Assembly: GCF_016026235.1 (NCBI RefSeq)
Contig: NZ_CP065613.1
Source of the DNA: Escherichia coli
Lineage (GTDB): Bacteria > Pseudomonadota > Gammaproteobacteria > Enterobacterales > Enterobacteriaceae
Length of the DNA stretch: 64,000 nucleotides
Strand: one strand, 5' to 3'
Shown: positions 6,478 to 54,518 of the stretch, piece after piece
How positions within the stretch are numbered: position 1 is the stretch's first letter
Layout: each line of letters starts with the position of its first letter
Notes under the pieces: generated by a model
What the model saw: the letters and a program-made list of their open reading frames with translations, nothing else
What the model was told of the DNA's origin: nothing
The model's database searches: none
Translations under genes and position numbers: made by a program

Positions 6478-7896
6478 ATGGTTACTATCAATACGGAATC
6501 TGCTTTAACGCCACGTTCTTTGCGGGATACGCGGCGTATGAATATGTTTGTTTCGGTAGCTGCTGCGGTCGCAGGATTGTTATTTGGTCTTGATATCGGC
6601 GTAATCGCCGGAGCGTTGCCGTTCATTACCGATCACTTTGTGCTGACCAGTCGTTTGCAGGAATGGGTGGTTAGTAGCATGATGCTCGGCGCAGCAATTG
6701 GTGCGCTGTTTAATGGTTGGCTGTCGTTCCGCCTGGGGCGTAAATACAGCCTGATGGCGGGGGCCATCCTGTTTGTACTCGGTTCTATAGGGTCCGCTTT
6801 TGCGACCAGCGTAGAGATGTTAATCGCCGCTCGTGTGGTGCTGGGCATTGCTGTCGGGATCGCGTCTTACACCGCTCCTCTGTATCTTTCTGAAATGGCA
6901 AGTGAAAACGTTCGCGGTAAGATGATCAGTATGTACCAGTTGATGGTCACACTCGGCATCGTGCTGGCGTTTTTATCTGATACAGCGTTCAGTTATAGCG
7001 GTAACTGGCGCGCAATGTTGGGGGTTCTTGCTTTACCAGCAGTTCTGCTGATTATTCTGGTGGTCTTCCTGCCAAATAGCCCGCGCTGGCTGGCGGAAAA
7101 GGGGCGTCATATTGAGGCGGAAGAAGTATTGCGTATGCTGCGTGATACGTCGGAAAAAGCGCGAGAAGAACTCAACGAAATTCGTGAAAGCCTGAAGTTA
7201 AAACAGGGCGGTTGGGCACTGTTTAAGATCAACCGTAACGTCCGTCGTGCTGTGTTTCTCGGTATGTTGTTGCAGGCGATGCAGCAGTTTACCGGTATGA
7301 ACATCATCATGTACTACGCGCCGCGTATCTTCAAAATGGCGGGCTTTACGACCACAGAACAACAGATGATTGCGACTCTGGTCGTAGGGCTGACCTTTAT
7401 GTTCGCCACCTTTATTGCGGTGTTTACGGTAGATAAAGCAGGGCGTAAACCGGCTCTGAAAATTGGTTTCAGCGTGATGGCGTTAGGCACTCTGGTGCTG
7501 GGCTATTGCCTGATGCAGTTTGATAACGGTACGGCTTCCAGTGGCTTGTCCTGGCTCTCTGTTGGCATGACGATGATGTGTATTGCCGGTTATGCGATGA
7601 GCGCCGCGCCAGTGGTGTGGATCCTGTGCTCTGAAATTCAGCCGCTGAAATGCCGCGATTTCGGTATTACCTGTTCGACCACCACGAACTGGGTGTCGAA
7701 TATGATCATCGGCGCGACCTTCCTGACGCTGCTCGACAGCATTGGCGCTGCCGGTACGTTCTGGCTCTACACTGCGCTGAACATTGCGTTTGTGGGCATC
7801 ACTTTCTGGCTCATTCCGGAAACCAAAAATGTCACGCTGGAACATATCGAACGCAAACTGATGGCAGGCGAGAAGTTGAGAAATATCGGCATCTGA
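6478..7896 (+). CDS. araE: Arabinose:H+ symporter (MFS sugar porter)
   Basis: ORF 6349-7896; the ATG at 6478 gives the 472-aa protein [30 protein letters not shown]..., 12-TM sugar-porter signature. Confidence 0.95.
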
Positions 7897-7902
7897 TTTC
7901 AC

Positions 7903-7935
7903 GGGCCGGATGTGCTGTACATCCGGCCCTTTTTT
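7903..7935 (+). terminator. Intrinsic terminator after araE
   Basis: GC-rich hairpin GGGCCGGATGTGCTGTACATCCGGCCC followed by TTTTTT. Confidence 0.7.
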
Positions 7936-15992: not shown

Positions 15993-15997
15993 TATTT

Positions 15998-16019
15998 AAC
16001 GCCGGTTTGAACCGGCGTT
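15998..16019. terminator. Hairpin between convergent lplT and tas, possibly bidirectional
   Basis: Perfect inverted repeat AACGCCGGTTTGAACCGGCGTT between the two stop codons. Confidence 0.5.
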
Positions 16020-16023
16020 AATC

Positions 16024-17161: not shown

Positions 17162-18587
17162 TAATGCCAGTCAGTTAAGCAACTGACTGGCTCTTTTTCG
17201 GGGCTGTGGGGTATTTCCAGGGCCTCTCCTTTACCACTCTCGGGAAGGCCCTTCCCCTTCTCGTCGGTAATTTCACAAGTTGTCCCATACTTGCAAGATC
17301 GCGCATCAGCTCCGGTATACGTCCCGGTGAAGCGCCCTGCAATGTCATCAGCATTCTCATCACCATTCCGCATGATTCTGAGAAACTCAGTTGATTCGGC
17401 CAGTAACCTTTCAGATGTTCCGCCATTTTAATCATCTGATATCTCACCAGATTATAAGCCAGTAAGACACCCCACAGCTCTTGCTCCACAAGCTCCGGCT
17501 TTTTACTTCTCAGCGTCAGCCTGCTCAGTTGCATCGTCTGTTTTATCTCCCTGTATCCCAGTTCGATTTCCCAGCGATGACTGTACAGATCCGCCATTTC
17601 TCCTCCGGGGAAGCGCATGGCGTCCGTCATCGACGTCAGCAGATGGCAGACTTTTCCTTTGCGCGTCACGGTCAGCAGGCGGGCTGTCACTTCATTTCCC
17701 AGTCCCGGCCACTTTTTTCGTGCCTGCGGGCTGGTTTTCAGCTTCACCAGATGATCGCCTTTACCCAGTTTTCTGAGCTCTTCATATTGCGCTCCCTTTC
17801 TGAGAGGTATCATCCAGTGGCGGTGTTCTCCCGCCAGGCTCCAGGCATTTAACAGTCCCAGTGAGTAATAACCTTTATCCATTAACGTCAGAGTGTTATC
17901 GCCGGTTTGTTCTATAAGTTGCTCAGCAAGCTCATTTTCGCTGTTCTTCATCGTGCCGAAGGCTGCAGCCGTCAGCAGATGGCTGGTCAGTTCCATCTGG
18001 CAGACCATTTTGACCTGCGGGTAGAGCGCCGGGTTCCCGGCATGTGTCTGGCGGGGGAAGGCTGCATCGTTCTCTGGTGTATCCGGTGTGCGCCAGAACA
18101 CACCATCGATGGCCAGCAGGGTCAGGCCGCACCAGTGCGGATGCGGCGTGGCGTTATGCCAGAGCTGCGCTGTTTTCGTGAACACGCGGCGGACAGCCTC
18201 ACTTCCCAGGCGCTGGCGGGCCTGAATAACGGCACTGGGGGCAACGAAGGGGCGATTGCCCGGCAGCATGATGTCCAGGCGATTCACAATCTGGTGAAGA
18301 GGTTCTTTACGCTCAAGCGCCATGCCAACAATACACCAGACCATCATTTCGAGGGGAAGACGGCGCTTGCGTAGCGTTACAGTACCTGATTCGGCAAGGC
18401 AACGAGAGATGAGTTCGGGGTCGAGGTAATCCCCCAGAGAAGTCAGTGGGTTACGCAGAGAATCGTAACGGGATACCAGATCAAGAGCCTGTCCAATGTG
18501 CATAAAAAAATCCGGAAACAAGTGAGCGTTTCCGGATTCTTACACAGCCACTGGATCGGTCAACTGATCCTTAACTGATCGGCATTA
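17162..18587 (-). mobile_element. IS4 insertion sequence (1426 bp)
   Basis: Terminal inverted repeats TAATGCCAGTCAGTTAAG... (17162-) and ...CTTAACTGATCGGCATTA (-18587); 1426-bp length; one long transposase ORF; flanked by a 13-bp direct repeat. Confidence 0.9.
17175..18503 (-). CDS. insG: IS4 transposase (DDE family)
   Basis: ORF 17175-18521; likely start [18 protein letters not shown]... at 18503 (442 aa). Confidence 0.9.
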
Positions 18588-42923: not shown

Positions 42924-44021
42924 ATGAAAGGACGTTGGGTAAAGTACCTTCTTATGGGCACGGTTGTGGCAATGCTTGCCGCCTGCTCTTCCAAACCAAC
43001 CGATCGCGGACAGCAATATAAAGACGGGAAATTTACCCAGCCTTTCTCTCTGGTGAACCAGCCAGATGCCGTTGGCGCGCCGATTAACGCCGGTGATTTT
43101 GCCGAGCAAATTAACCATATCCGTAATTCATCACCGCGTCTGTATGGCAACCAGAGTAATGTTTATAACGCGGTGCAAGAGTGGCTGCGCGCAGGCGGTG
43201 ATACCCGCAATATGCGCCAGTTCGGCATTGATGCCTGGCAGATGGAAGGTGCCGACAATTATGGTAACGTGCAGTTTACAGGCTATTACACGCCGGTAAT
43301 TCAGGCGCGCCATACCCGCCAGGGCGAGTTCCAGTATCCGATTTACCGTATGCCGCCAAAACGTGGTCGTCTGCCGTCTCGTGCGGAGATCTACGCGGGG
43401 GCATTGAGCGATAAATACATCCTCGCTTACAGCAACTCTCTGATGGATAATTTCATTATGGATGTGCAGGGTAGTGGGTATATCGACTTTGGTGATGGCA
43501 GTCCGCTTAACTTTTTCAGCTATGCAGGGAAAAACGGTCATGCCTATCGCAGCATTGGTAAGGTGCTGATCGACCGTGGCGAAGTGAAAAAAGAAGATAT
43601 GTCGATGCAGGCGATTCGTCACTGGGGCGAAACACACAGTGAAGCCGAGGTTCGCGAGCTGCTGGAACAGAACCCGTCTTTCGTTTTCTTTAAACCGCAA
43701 TCTTTTGCACCGGTGAAAGGGGCAAGTGCGGTGCCGCTGGTTGGCCGTGCTTCTGTTGCCTCTGATCGTTCAATTATTCCGCCAGGTACAACCTTGCTGG
43801 CAGAAGTGCCGCTGCTGGATAATAACGGCAAATTTAACGGTCAGTATGAACTGCGTCTGATGGTGGCACTGGATGTCGGTGGCGCAATCAAAGGCCAACA
43901 CTTCGATATCTATCAAGGGATCGGGCCGGAAGCCGGACACCGCGCAGGTTGGTACAACCACTATGGACGTGTCTGGGTGCTGAAAACGGCTCCGGGCGCA
44001 GGTAACGTCTTTAGCGGCTGA
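42924..44021 (+). CDS. mltA: Membrane-bound lytic murein transglycosylase A (lipoprotein)
   Basis: 365-aa protein from the ATG at 42924 (MKGRWVKYLLMGTVVAMLAACSSK, lipobox); the ORF-track extension back to 42642 reads through the tRNA genes and is rejected. Confidence 0.95.
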   Translation: MKGRWVKYLLMGTVVAMLAACSSKPTDRGQQYKDGKFTQPFSLVNQPDAVGAPINAGDFAEQINHIRNSSPRLYGNQSNVYNAVQEWLRAGGDTRNMRQFGIDAWQMEGADNYGNVQFTGYYTPVIQARHTRQGEFQYPIYRMPPKRGRLPSRAEIYAGALSDKYILAYSNSLMDNFIMDVQGSGYIDFGDGSPLNFFSYAGKNGHAYRSIGKVLIDRGEVKKEDMSMQAIRHWGETHSEAEVRELLEQNPSFVFFKPQSFAPVKGASAVPLVGRASVASDRSIIPPGTTLLAEVPLLDNNGKFNGQYELRLMVALDVGGAIKGQHFDIYQGIGPEAGHRAGWYNHYGRVWVLKTAPGAGNVFSG

Positions 44022-44108
44022 TGTGATATTCTGTATGCCGTTTTTACGGATATGACAGGGTGAGGGATAACCTCACATCCTGATTATTGACTAAGTGCGC
44101 GTTGTTCA

Positions 44109-44207
44109 TGCCGGATGCGGCGTGAACGCCTTATCCAGCCTACAAATCATGCAAATCCAAAATATTGCAGGAGTTATGTAGGCCTGATAAGCGTAGCGCA
44201 TCAGGCA
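44109..44207. repeat. BIME-like pair of inverted REP elements
   Basis: GCCGGATGCGGCGTGAACGCCTTATCCAGCCTACA and TGTAGGCCTGATAAGCGTAGCGCATCAGGCA in opposite orientation; the segment is flanked by an 18-bp direct repeat (44057-44074 and 44219-44236). Confidence 0.6.
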
Positions 44208-44259
44208 TTTATGCGTTTAGGGTGAGGGATAACCTCGCCCTTTTTAATTCTGAGGTGCT

Positions 44260-45066
44260 ATGTCTGTGGTAATTAGTGATGCATGGCGTCAGCGTTTTGG
44301 TGGCACAGCGCGTCTGTATGGTGAAAAAGCGTTGCAACTGTTTGCTGACGCGCATATTTGTGTGGTCGGTATTGGCGGTGTCGGTTCCTGGGCGGCGGAA
44401 GCGCTGGCGCGCACGGGGATTGGCGCAATCACGCTTATCGATATGGATGATGTGTGCGTCACCAATACCAATCGGCAAATTCATGCCCTGCGCGATAACG
44501 TTGGGCTGGCAAAAGCGGAAGTTATGGCGGAGCGTATTCGCCAGATTAACCCGGAGTGCCGTGTAACGGTGGTGGATGATTTCGTGACGCCGGATAACGT
44601 AGCGCAGTATATGAGCGTGGGTTATTCGTACGTGATTGATGCCATTGATAGTGTACGGCCCAAAGCGGCGCTGATTGCTTATTGTCGGCGCAATAAAATC
44701 CCACTGGTCACAACCGGTGGCGCGGGTGGGCAAATTGACCCGACGCAGATTCAGGTTACCGATCTGGCGAAAACGATTCAGGACCCGCTGGCGGCGAAGT
44801 TGCGTGAGCGCCTGAAAAGCGATTTTGGCGTAGTGAAAAACAGTAAAGGTAAGCTCGGCGTGGATTGCGTGTTCTCTACCGAAGCATTGGTGTATCCGCA
44901 GTCAGATGGTACGGTTTGTGCGATGAAAGCCACGGCGGAAGGGCCAAAGCGGATGGATTGTGCATCTGGATTTGGCGCGGCAACGATGGTGACCGCCACC
45001 TTTGGTTTTGTTGCGGTTTCTCATGCGCTGAAGAAGATGATGGCGAAAGCGGCGCGTCAGGGGTAA
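44260..45066 (+). CDS. tcdA: tRNA threonylcarbamoyladenosine dehydratase (E1-like, ThiF/MoeB fold)
   Basis: 268-aa ORF with nucleotide-binding motif VVGIGGVGSWAAEALAR. Confidence 0.9.
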   Translation: MSVVISDAWRQRFGGTARLYGEKALQLFADAHICVVGIGGVGSWAAEALARTGIGAITLIDMDDVCVTNTNRQIHALRDNVGLAKAEVMAERIRQINPECRVTVVDDFVTPDNVAQYMSVGYSYVIDAIDSVRPKAALIAYCRRNKIPLVTTGGAGGQIDPTQIQVTDLAKTIQDPLAAKLRERLKSDFGVVKNSKGKLGVDCVFSTEALVYPQSDGTVCAMKATAEGPKRMDCASGFGAATMVTATFGFVAVSHALKKMMAKAARQG

Positions 45067-51215: not shown

Positions 51216-52664
51216 TCACACTTCCTCTATAAATTCAGGTTCAGTTTGCGGGTAGAAATAACGGTACTGATAATGAATCTGTGCGCGGGCTTCTTCCGGG
51301 CTGTTAAATTCCCCTACGCCATACCAACCGAACAGCGCAGCTCCTGCGACGGTCGTTTCGGCGTCGTCGAGAACTTTTACCGGAATATCAAGCATATTGG
51401 CTTTAATCTGATTCCACAATGTGTTGCGACTTCCTCCACCGACTAACAATAATTCAGAGGCCTTAAAGTGCCCGATTTTTTCCAGCATCTGTAGATTGCG
51501 CTGTAATTGCGCAGTTAACCCTTCCAGCGCCGCGCGATAGAAATGCCCCCGCGTGGTATTAAGCGTCACTCCTTGCCAGCCAGCGTTCTGACACGACAAT
51601 AAATCACACTGCATTTTTACGCCATCCGCGCCAGGCGCGATCAGACGAGCTTCTTCAATCAACATTTGCCAGGGTGTTTCAGCCGTCCAGAACAGTTTTC
51701 TCACCCATTCCAGCACGCCGGATGCCAGCCATTGCATACCTGGGTTATACAACCCTGCCTGGCTATCCAGTTCGCAGGTGGAACCGGCGTACTGACTTAA
51801 CAGCGAAGTATCAACCTGGGCGCTACGGACCATTAAAATTTCCCATGTACCGGAAGAGAGCACGGGTTCATTTTGGTCGGCACCAGCGCCAAAAAGGGCG
51901 AACTGGGTATCGTGACCTGCGGAAATCACCGGTATGCCAACGGGTAAGCCGAGCATTGCTGCGGCGCTGTTCTGTAGCGTACCAATCTGTTCACCCGCTT
52001 CCACCAGACGAGGGAAGAGTCGGCGTGGAATACCGGTGGCTTGTAAAATTTGCGGACTGAAATCGCGTTGCTGGATATCCAGCATCTGGCTGGTTCCGGC
52101 CATCGTGATATCAGTAGTGAATTCGCCGGTTAAACGGTGGTTAATCAGCGACGAAATAAAGAGCCAGGCGTGCGCGCGTTCCAGCAGTTGTGGATGATTT
52201 TCTTTCAACCACACCAACTTATATAACGTATTGAAACTAAAGGCTCCGACGCCAGAAATAGCCTGCAACCGCTGTGCGGAGATCAACTGTTCAATATTGT
52301 CCATAACCGCTGCTGTTCGCGGACATTTCCAGCTAATGATCGGATAGAGCAGATTGCCTTGCTTATCTACCAGAGCGCCATCCACACCAAAGGTGGTGAC
52401 GGCGATACCGCGGATGTGGCATTCAGTCAGTTCACTATTGATTTGCCGACAGCAATCAGCAAAGCGTTGCAAAATGGCGTCTAAAGACCACTGGTGCCAG
52501 GTGTTGTTTTCCATCGCGATATCGCTGGCATTAGGCGTTGAGGCGCGGGCAACAATTTTTCCCTGCCGATTAACCGCGATGGCCCTGACATTGGTCGCGC
52601 CACAGTCGAGTACCAGGATAACTTCTTGTTTCATAATCGCTCCTGCAATATAGCCGGATAACAT
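51216..52664 (-). CDS. fucK: L-fuculokinase
   Basis: FGGY-family kinase ORF. The longest form is 482 aa; an internal ATG at 52634 has a strong AGGAG Shine-Dalgarno (472-aa form, [17 protein letters not shown]...) and may be the true start. Confidence 0.9.
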
Positions 52665-52742
52665 TGCTTATCCGGCTAACCACTCTTGCTTGTTCAGGCC
52701 CGGTAGCCGGAGCGACCGGGCATCACATCAGGGAGTAATGTA

Positions 52743-54518
52743 TTAACGCTTGTACAACGGACCGTAGTTCTGGCAAGCGCGGTAATCCTGGCCTTCAATA
52801 TCCATGCCGTGCGCAGCCCAGGCAGAAGGACGATACACTTTGGTCTCTTCAACGTTGTGCATACATACCGGGATACGCAGCATGGAGGCGAGAGTGATAA
52901 AGTCAGCGCCAACGTGGCCGATGGTCAGAACCCCATGGTTAGCGCCCCAGTTCGCCATTACCGAGTACACATCCGTAAACGGCCCTTTACCGGTGAGGCG
53001 CGGTGCAAACCAGGTGGTTGGCCAGGTTGAGTTGGTGCGTTTGTTGAGGATGTCATGCACATCCTTCGGCAATTCCACGCTCCAGCCTTCCGCGATTTGC
53101 AGTACCGGTCCCAGGCCTTTGATGATGTTGACACGAGTCATGGTGAACGGGACGCCGCCTTCGGTAAGGAAGCGGGAAGAGTAACCGCCGCCACGGAAGT
53201 ATTCGTGGATCGCCGGGCACCATTCGGTAGCGGCGAGGCAAGCGTCAGCCTCTTGCTGAGAGATTTCCCAGTGCGGCTTCATCGTCGGGTTACCTTCGCT
53301 GTCGCGTTGTTTACAGGAACCGTCCAGCGCAGCAGAACCTGAGTTGATCAAATGGATGATGCCGTGTTCTGCCAGTCCATCGAGTTTATGCCCCGTTACA
53401 CGCTCAATTGCTTCTGGTGACCAGTAGGTACGCACATCGGCAAATACCTGAGCGGTGCCGGTGAGCTGGTGACCCATTAGCATTGCCACGCCGTTAAGAC
53501 TGTCGTTTTCGGTCGCCACGACAAAGGGTTCGCGCACGCCATTCCAGTCAAATGAACTGTTGAGGATCGCTTCGGCGGTGTCACCATTGGGATATTGATC
53601 GGTCCAGTGACGTTGCCCCTGGAAGCCCGCAGCGATGGCGTTGTAGCCAAGTGATTCTTCCACGCGACCAATATCGGCCAGTTTGCTGTTGCCTTGCATC
53701 ATGTCGCGGATACACATCGCCATCAGTAAACTTTCGCGCAGAACTGCGCGACTTTGCTCGGCATTACGTTGATACTGTTTGTTATTTTCATCTTCGCCAT
53801 AGCGGAAGTTTTTATCAGCCCAGGCCAGTGCCATTTCCAGTTCGGCTTCGTCGTAAATCTTCTGATCGATACGGCGACGCAGTTCGGTCATATCCACCGC
53901 CTGGACTTTCATTCCCAGCCAGGATTCAAAGAAGTTGTGATCAACAATAGAACCGGCGATACCCATCGAAACGCCGCCCAGCGACAGATAGCTTTTACCT
54001 TTCATGCTGGCGACGGCCAAACCGGCGCGGGCAAAGCGCAGCAGTTTTTCTTCAACATCGGCAGGAATCGATGTGTCATCGGCATCCTGAACGTCATGAC
54101 CGTAAATGGAGAATGCTGGGATGCCTTTCTGGCTGTGAGCTGCCAGAGCCGCTGCCAGGTAAACAGCGCCGGGACGTTCAGTGCCGTTAAAGCCCCAAAT
54201 GGCTTTCGGGCGGGTTGGATCCATGTCGATGGTTTCACTGCCATAGCACCAGCAAGGCGTTACCGTAATGGTGAGGCCTACATTCTGACTGCTGAATTTT
54301 TCTTCGCAAGCAGCGGCTTCAGCCATACCCGCGATACAGGTATCGGAAATGACACACTCGACGGCAGCTCCGCAGGCATGGCGCAGTTTCTCGGTCAGCA
54401 GTGCGGCCGTAGCTTTCGCCATATTCATTGTTTGTTCTTCAAGCGACTCACGAACACCCATGCGACGACCGTCAATAACCGGGCGGATACCAATTTTCGG
54501 TAAGCTGATTTTTTTCAT
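52743..54518 (-). CDS. fucI: L-fucose isomerase
   Basis: 591-aa [33 protein letters not shown]... Confidence 0.95.

Follow-up and report, generated by a model that had tools for sequence, protein, structure and literature searches.

The fucK gene of Escherichia coli, encoding L-fuculokinase, has two ATG codons in the same frame and ten codons apart, at 52664 and 52634, and the first of these lies inside a palindrome between fucI and fucK. Which of the two codons starts the protein, and what the palindrome is, are the questions raised by this locus in the 64,000-nucleotide stretch of DNA analysed here (the window). The reading that explains the locus best, with a probability of roughly 80% as a whole, comprises translation from 52634, an accidental ATG at 52664, a spacer left over from a REP pair (BIME) and a proposed role of its hairpins in stabilising mRNA or tuning expression. 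The shorter, 472-aa product is already the reference in RefSeq and UniProt and the discrepancy has been in print since 2007, so that the start-site question is mainly one of annotation hygiene, to which the anatomy of a REP relic and a structure conserved amid changing sequence in the fucI-fucK spacer are small additions.

Layout of the fucI-fucK spacer

The features of the locus, in coordinates of the window, are listed in the direction of transcription.

52743..54518, minus strand: coding sequence of fucI (L-fucose isomerase), ending in TAA at 52745-52743; from the list of open reading frames and the fucI annotation in matching E. coli genomes
52635..52742, minus strand: fucI-fucK intercistronic spacer of 108 nt, highly structured; the same 108 nt occur in NC_000913.3
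52698..52721, minus strand: hairpin H1, GCCCGGTCGC-TCCG-GCTACCGGGC, a probable decayed inverted REP (iREP) with its CTAC tail changed to CTGA; from the inverted-repeat finder
52679..52697, minus strand: linker of 19 nt between the hairpins, CTGAACAAGCAAGAGTGGT; from the sequence, matched in alignment A1 by the variable linker of the BIME
52651..52678, minus strand: hairpin H2, TAGCCGGATAA-GCAATG-TTATCCGGCTA, the palindrome of the earlier note and a probable decayed REP that shows GTTA for GTAG and has lost its stem mismatch; perfect 11-bp arms
52662..52664, minus strand: upstream in-frame ATG in the H2 loop, start of the 482-aa reading frame, judged non-functional from translation, anti-Shine-Dalgarno duplex, folding and comparison with relatives
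52640..52644, minus strand: fucK Shine-Dalgarno (SD) sequence AGGAG, 5 nt from the ATG; from the sequence, the anti-SD duplex and conservation
51216..52634, minus strand: coding sequence of fucK (L-fuculokinase), 472 aa, start ATG 52634-52632, stop included; start shared by NP_417283.2, WP_000808392.1 and UniProt FUCK_ECOLI

The longest fucK reading frame spans 51216-52664 on the minus strand (482 aa; open reading frame list and translation) and begins inside the palindrome, exactly where the earlier note had placed it. The repeat finder gives the palindrome, H2, two 11-bp arms that are 100% complementary (52668-52678 and 52651-52661; 28 nt in total); its presence was thus correctly reported, and only its extent (52652-52677) was one base pair too short on each side. 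The 6-nt loop GCAATG (52667-52662) contains the upstream ATG (52664-52662), and an in-frame TAA (52670-52668) lies two codons 5' of this ATG, within the 5' arm of H2. H1 is a 24-nt inverted repeat with one mismatch, which starts 21 nt past the fucI stop codon in E. coli. Compared over 52600-52760 of the window, the spacer is identical to that of K-12.

The window contains five perfect hairpins whose arms measure 11 bp and whose loops measure 3-8 nt, versus 0.08 expected from first-order Markov simulations. The 96-nt spacer without its SD region has a minimum free energy of -41.4 kcal/mol, versus -25.3 kcal/mol for dinucleotide shuffles (z = -5.4), and the separate hairpins fold at -18.2 kcal/mol (H1, 34-nt segment GUGAUG...CCUGAA) and -16.7 kcal/mol (H2). 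As coordinates, hairpin excess and spacer fold all hold, the observation that opened this analysis is sound.

Choice between the two start codons

Initiation led by an SD sequence involves an accessible, conserved motif at 5-9 nt from the start codon, which is present at the 52634 ATG and not at the 52664 ATG. An AGGAG (52644-52640) lies 5 nt before the downstream codon, the good spacing to which the earlier note had pointed, and the anti-SD duplex here has a predicted energy of -6.6 kcal/mol. The best duplex before the upstream codon, for which the same note had seen no obvious SD, involves GGA only and reaches -3.3 kcal/mol. Folding places the SD window of the 52664 ATG within the H2 stem with an unpaired probability of 0.00, and the unfolding cost for a ribosome amounts to 20.4 kcal/mol at 52664 versus 5.9 kcal/mol at 52634. 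The 52634 ATG is shown here to possess the sole credible ribosome-binding site, the upstream site being sequestered.

In the predicted fold the 52664 AUG itself lies exposed in the loop of H2 (unpaired probability 0.99). This exposure would suit an alternative in which translation begins at both codons, or truly at the upstream one, and a 482-aa FucK is made, for instance by re-initiation after fucI at the AUG presented in the loop. The alternative is also in keeping with the retention of the codon, which is found in all sampled E. coli and kept in essentially all genomes of the species: of 5424 E. coli genomes, 4910 have an identical 40-nt segment covering H2 (52645-52684) and 514 one with a single differing base, and the ATG persists in 8/8 sampled single-mismatch variants, each of which carries G52667A, at the first base of the loop. 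Against it stand the unusable SD and the approximately 20 kcal/mol needed to open a fully paired site, and the 482-aa product is accordingly improbable on energetic grounds, to which the comparison with relatives adds further objections.

One genome per species was scanned for fucK, which yielded 42 full-length Enterobacteriaceae loci (L004-L045) in addition to the window. The N-terminus starting at the downstream ATG reads MK[QNK][ED]V in the 42 retrieved loci and the window, one of them having MNNDV instead. This ATG is preceded in all loci by GGAG, or a close or GGGG variant, at constant spacing, and GGAG is invariant in alignment A1 (16 sequences); the spacer upstream of the SD is otherwise highly variable between genera (42 loci). 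Only E. coli, two close Escherichia lineages and three Citrobacter genomes, the last by independent gain, have an ATG at codon -10, which most genera lack. E. albertii has ATA at this codon, and the whole H2 hairpin is missing in E. whittamii. Changes within the 30 nt of the ten codons in Escherichia are limited to G52662A, which abolishes the ATG in E. albertii, and T52635C, seen in two sampled O157-type genomes.

The ten extra codons seem at first sight to be conserved across loci, with the pattern xxSGxxxGAI. This similarity arises because the 3' arm of the REP (ATCCGGC) and the SD (GGAGCGATT) are conserved as nucleotides; judged from the alignments, it is a nucleotide-level and not a protein-level similarity. 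Conservation of these codons across the family had been proposed in advance as a check that could overturn the short form, and the lack of any protein-level signal leaves that form intact. REP arms followed by an SD can therefore mimic protein-level conservation, and REP hairpins near start codons constitute a general trap in that they supply spurious in-frame ATGs.

Family models agree with the shorter form. The product matches NCBIfam TIGR02628 (L-fuculokinase equivalog) over its full length with 845.8 bits against a cut-off of 470.9, where profile positions 1-465 correspond to residues 14-473 of the 482-aa form and the first position is residue 4 of the 472-aa form, and Pfam FGGY_N begins at residue 15 of the 482-aa form. 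The ten-residue extension thus lies outside both models, which again speaks against a functional upstream start. The PDB holds distant homologues only and no structure of E. coli FucK; the solved FGGY kinase homologues begin a few residues from MKQ.

Curated databases have since switched to 472 aa: in NC_000913.3 (NP_417283.2) and in the PGAP annotation (WP_000808392.1), fucK begins 108 nt after fucI and encodes 472 aa, and UniProt FUCK_ECOLI is the same 472-aa sequence. The 482-aa FucK persists in a few older GenBank records, which may be counted in favour of the upstream start. Among the 60 genome matches listed for the 40-nt H2 region, none has an annotated feature overlapping it.

The same ten-codon discrepancy was reported with the start-site predictor Hon-yaku (Makita et al. 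2007), whose worst "false positive" was fucK, predicted ten codons shorter than the EcoGene site; its authors argued that their own shorter site was correct and the long form erroneous (PMC1805508). The EcoGene set, described as N-terminally verified by sequencing, carried the 482-aa fucK start in 2007, which is a further argument for the use of the upstream codon (PMC1805508). That work and the present one share both the ambiguity and the conclusion that the downstream site is right; the hairpin, its REP origin and the nucleotide-level nature of the upstream conservation are not mentioned in the former. The sign convention of the Hon-yaku offsets is presumably as read here, having been checked against the lon (-43, M44), secA (-34, M35) and guaB (+23) protein sequences.

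A search of the literature did not trace a primary FucK N-terminal sequence behind the long "verified" start of EcoGene, and fucK start-site or FucK N-terminus data were not found in the TRAINSPOTTER and INRI-seq supplements or in the text on Ribo-RET. With the 5' UTR of INRI-seq constructs limited to 30 nt, the upstream fucK ATG would fall at their extreme 5' end. Low-level use of the 52664 AUG, for example by 70S re-initiation after fucI, would give a minor 482-aa isoform and would explain the long EcoGene start; this too is hardly likely. If the codon were used after all, decaying REPs could yield new in-frame N-terminal extensions.

Taken with the conserved start and SD, the rarity of the upstream ATG, the unfolding cost, the family models and the reference annotations, the preference for 472 aa already expressed in the earlier note is well founded. 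Translation of fucK from the ATG at 52634, giving 472 aa, can be assigned with high confidence, and the ATG at 52664 is almost certainly unused. In the proposed mechanism, ribosomes would be recruited through the AGGAG at 52644-52640.

Relationship of the hairpins to REPs

In alignment A1, H1 and H2 match column for column the REP pair (BIME) found at the same place in Citrobacter, Klebsiella, Salmonella and Raoultella planticola. The orthologous BIME reads ...GCCCGGTGGCGCAAGCTTACCGGGCCTAC - linker - GTAGGCCGGATAAGCGCAGCGCCATCCGGC..., where GCCCGGTGGCGCAAGCTTACCGGGCCTAC, from Citrobacter, Klebsiella and Raoultella, is the aligned counterpart of H1, and H2 is orthologous to GTAGGCCGGATAAGCGCAGCGCCATCCGGC. 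The E. coli H2 retains the lower stem GCCGGAT/ATCCGGC; where the orthologues have an apical GCG stem, it has the loop GCAATG, and AA:TT pairs stand in place of their internal AA/C mismatch. The tetranucleotides are altered as well, with GTTA for GTAG before H2 and CTGA for CTAC after H1; GTAG opens 21 of the 24 orthologous REPs in alignment A2. When the window is searched with a covariance model (R1) built from these 24 REPs, H2 comes fourth, on the expected strand, at 14.6 bits (E = 0.14), the alignment covering the lower stem alone.

In one strain, E. coli BH100, IS1397 (IS3 family) sits in the loop of H2, flanked by a GTTA target duplication. REPs are the specific insertion target reported for IS1397 (PMC1525189), and H2 is therefore recognised by an element with this preference. 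Positional alignment with canonical REPs of other genera, the covariance rank and the IS1397 insertion bear out the earlier suggestion that the palindrome is an intergenic fucI-fucK element.

E. coli REPs are described as imperfect palindromes of 30-40 nt with GTAG 5' of the hairpin foot, both GTAG and the stem mismatch being required for binding and cleavage by TnpA-REP (PMC3333891). H2 (28 nt, perfect) and H1 (24 nt, one mismatch) differ from this description in length and, for H2, in imperfection, and the tetranucleotides at H2 and H1 are GTTA and CTGA. The stem of H2, complementary throughout, has no mismatch, and the 40-nt region around it is not a high-copy sequence: the median number of BLAST locations per genome is one across 5424 E. 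coli genomes, and the window contains a single match at up to 3 mismatches. In being extragenic and in descending from a REP of this locus, H2 does resemble one, and the arrangement of H1 (iREP orientation), 19-nt linker and H2 (REP orientation) is that of the orthologous canonical pairs.

Compared with the REP/BIME elements of E. coli (y, z1, z2; Bachellier et al.; Ton-Hoang et al. 2012, PMC3333891), the fuc pair shares the GC-rich, extragenic, head-to-head hairpins and the short linker. The lower stem GCCGGAT...ATCCGGC of H2 is identical to that of z-type REPs, and the targeting by IS1397 is a further feature shared with REPs. Unlike canonical REPs, however, H2 has a 6-nt loop in place of the apical stem besides its mutated tetranucleotide, lost mismatch and shorter length; it is single-copy at the level of BLAST, and its covariance score is sub-threshold (14.6 bits, versus 26-29 bits for the bona fide BIME of the window at 44108-44208).

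H2 is thus excluded from strict REP membership by the loss of GTAG and of the stem mismatch and by its perfect 28 nt, whereas the orthology and the IS1397 insertion lead us to call it a REP that has decayed and become immobilised, part of a relic BIME. The label "REP-like" in the earlier note is fair by descent and orthology and does not extend to the strict definition. From these sequence comparisons, a REP origin of the fucI-fucK hairpins is very probable. A literature search for a described REP between fucI and fucK returned nothing relevant, and an Rfam scan of 52400-52950 (E up to 10) gave two chance matches only, to a fungal snoRNA and a human lncRNA.

The possibility that the palindrome is a meaningless chance inverted repeat is negligible. 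Its short length is the one property in keeping with chance, which is refuted by the REP orthology, by the expectation of about 0.08 such hairpins per window and by conservation in more than 5400 E. coli genomes, where the 40-nt segment has full-length matches in 5423 of 5426; its targeting by IS1397 speaks against chance as well.

The preferred reading of the 108-nt spacer is that of a BIME remnant, in which H1 would be the inverted REP and H2 the REP. In the E. coli/albertii lineage both copies would have lost GTAG/CTAC, and H2, deprived of its apical stem and mismatch, would have become a perfect 11-bp hairpin. The ATG at 52664 would then be an evolutionary accident, produced by a loop mutation in a decaying REP hairpin and in frame by chance.

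Maintenance and possible role of the stem-loops

Across Escherichia, three distinct substitutions are found in H2 (52667, 52665 and 52662), all of which affect the 6-nt loop, the 22 stem positions being free of change, an outcome with a chance of approximately 0.006-0.01 by our own arithmetic; the E. coli sample for stem and loop substitutions consisted of 13 natural isolates. In H1, the two stem substitutions of the genus, A52704G (O157:H7) and C52698T (a divergent lineage), both lead to a G.U wobble. Recent common ancestry or low diversity, rather than selection, could account for the invariant stem of H2.

Strong folding is common to the fucI-fucK spacers of the family, 41 of 43 having z < -2 (median -4.3). 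E. whittamii and C. sedlakii have a single hairpin in the spacer, and in several genera that lack the REP pair the fucK SD comes directly after a GC hairpin and its T-run. The latter arrangement was found by a consensus scan in the spacers of Raoultella terrigena and Symbiopectobacterium. A hairpin is accordingly kept between fucI and fucK across Enterobacteriaceae, and its identity changes: a REP pair in some, one REP or a terminator-like stem in others. Some hairpin at this position appears to be selected across the family.

The T-runs raise the question of whether the palindrome serves as an intrinsic (Rho-independent) terminator, or as an attenuator, between fucPI and fucKUR. The hairpin and T-run of the equivalent spacers in Raoultella terrigena and Symbiopectobacterium, and those seen by eye in Enterobacter sp. 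10-1 and Raoultella BIGb0138, would agree with such a function. Intrinsic termination requires a GC hairpin together with a T/U run, but neither E. coli hairpin is followed by one (no run of at least four T occurs in the E. coli spacer), and a scan of 52300-53100 shows no promoter- or terminator-like site, fucK, fucU and fucR following downstream without a promoter-like site. On account of this empty scan, the terminator reading, most improbable for E. coli, was dropped together with that of an internal promoter.

A further alternative leaves the start-site assignment as it is and regards the hairpins as a functionless relic, that is, a selfish REP pair that once entered the fucI-fucK spacer and is now decaying. 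It accords with the loss from H1 and H2 of the GTAG/CTAC and mismatch needed by the REP-associated transposase (PMC3333891), with the persistence of E. whittamii and C. sedlakii on one hairpin and with the highly variable content of the spacer between genera. Low folding energy is in any case expected of REPs, which are structured by nature, so that their presence alone is no proof of function. Yet H2 has been remodelled to a perfect 11-bp stem rather than melted, with its three substitutions confined to the loop, the changes in the H1 stem are G.U-compatible, and a strong hairpin persists at this site in genera without a REP, which points to a position-specific need for structure. The relic alternative, the main rival of a functional reading, is on balance rather unlikely.

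The near-universal hairpin is the ground for proposing that it contributes to mRNA stability or to the tuning of expression, and by analogy with other intercistronic REPs the odds of this functional reading are about even. The two stem-loops (-18 and -17 kcal/mol) would be transcribed within the fucPIKUR mRNA and act like those REPs. By blocking 3'-to-5' exonucleases, they could protect the upstream fucP-fucI segment and so set the ratio of FucI to FucK, and they may also keep ribosomes off the spurious ATG at 52664.

The paradigm of such an mRNA stabiliser is reportedly the intercistronic REP of malE-malF, studied by Newbury et al. in 1987. REPs are described as structures inhibiting 3'-to-5' exonucleolytic decay (PMC10100675). 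REP stabilisers of the malE-malF type and REP-containing mRNAs have in common with the fuc hairpins a stable intercistronic stem-loop in a sugar-catabolism operon without a T-run. Like the malE-malF type, the fuc hairpins lie 3' of a gene whose product is expected to be needed in the larger amount, a likeness that is one of analogy.

A second REP-dependent effect, ribosome stalling caused by a REP within 15 nt of a stop codon, was reportedly described by Liang, Rudd and Deutscher in 2015. Both that system and fuc have a REP-type hairpin shortly after a stop codon, but H1 of E. coli, at 21 nt, is outside the range. The distance from the fucI stop codon to the REP is 4-9 nt in Klebsiella and Raoultella, where the stalling mechanism might apply. 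With a hairpin that is kept and an identity that changes, the spacer offers a reasonable test bed for intercistronic structures that set enzyme ratios in sugar operons.

Two minor observations may be recorded. Enterobacter sp. 10-1 and Raoultella BIGb0138 show, on inspection by eye, the same arrangement of hairpin and T-run as the spacers recovered by the scan. In three Citrobacter genomes, an ATG in the REP loop at codon -10 arose independently.

Start-codon ambiguities in other genera

In Citrobacter sp. NCU1, Awk 4 and R56 (retrieved fucK loci L032, L033 and L034, respectively), the orthologous REP (GCGCAATGCC) has an ATG in its loop at locus positions 2471–2473; this ATG lies in frame with fucK at codon −10 and sets the same annotation trap as that of E. 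coli fucK. This REP-loop ATG is of independent origin from the one in E. coli. A second start ambiguity, distinct from the codon −10 ATG, is present in Klebsiella and Salmonella (L009, L013, L015 and L025), where an in-frame ATG at 2489–2491, four codons 5' of the conserved fucK start, overlaps the Shine-Dalgarno sequence (tttATGGAGtt).

Insertions and replacements in the fucI-fucK spacer

Two E. coli strains carry an insertion sequence in this spacer:

L049:3080–4570 in E. coli strain BH100 (NZ_CP025251.1), corresponding to 52659–52662 in the window: IS1397 (IS3 family), in the loop of H2, the fucK-proximal spacer hairpin
L050:3255–4690 in E. coli isolate 68 (NZ_OX030728.1), corresponding to 52641 in the window: IS110-family element of 1458 bp

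The target duplication of IS1397 in BH100 is GTTA, and fucI and fucK are about 1.4 kb apart owing to this element. The IS110-family element of isolate 68 splits the fucK Shine-Dalgarno sequence (AGGA|AG; remaining sequence ...CATATAAGCGATTATG), and fucK translation is probably impaired in this isolate.

In genera whose spacers are short (51–57 nt) or Kluyvera-type (84–86 nt), the REP pair is replaced by a single GC-rich hairpin, as found in L023, L024, L040 and L043 (at about 2450–2490) and also in L018, L019, L026, L029, L031 and L038. The hairpins of L023, L024, L040 and L043 are followed by a T-run right before the fucK Shine-Dalgarno sequence and thus form a terminator-like structure within the operon, which is borne out by a terminator scan in L024 and L043. 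The spacers of Citrobacter amalonaticus S646 (L011; 183 nt) and Citrobacter sp. MGH106 (L044; 118 nt) have a different insert in place of the REP pair, in which 'gggtatgac' motifs recur and tgcaggacaaaaa...tttttgtcctgca forms a long, perfect palindrome.

The first REP begins 4–9 nt past the fucI stop codon in Klebsiella and Raoultella spacers (L009, L014, L025, L028 and L030), while 21 nt separate this stop codon from the first hairpin in E. coli. Liang and colleagues reportedly found in 2015 that a REP close behind a stop codon stalls terminating ribosomes within a limited distance range, and the Klebsiella and Raoultella spacing lies inside that range.

The fucK match in L046, a 382-nt contig of the actinobacterial Agrococcus sp. 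HG114 assembly with 99% identity to E. coli fucK at coverage <1, is almost certainly contamination.

Other REPs and perfect hairpins in the window

The window contains a canonical BIME and, besides H2, four perfect hairpins with 11-bp arms:

44108–44208: BIME of two inversely oriented REPs (GTAGGCTGGATAAGGCGTTCACGCCGCATCCGGCA, minus strand; GTAGGCCTGATAAGCGTAGCGCATCAGGCA, plus strand)
7903–7929: REP-like perfect hairpin (GGGCCGGATGTGCTGTACATCCGGCCC; E = 0.13 with the REP model)
15996–16021: perfect hairpin between convergent ORFs
17166–17191: perfect hairpin
18509–18538: perfect hairpin

The REPs of the BIME score 26–29 bits with the REP model, and the element is flanked by an ORF ending at 44021 and another starting at 44260. 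The hairpin at 7903–7929 lies directly past an ORF ending at 7896, while that at 15996–16021 resembles a bidirectional terminator in its placement.
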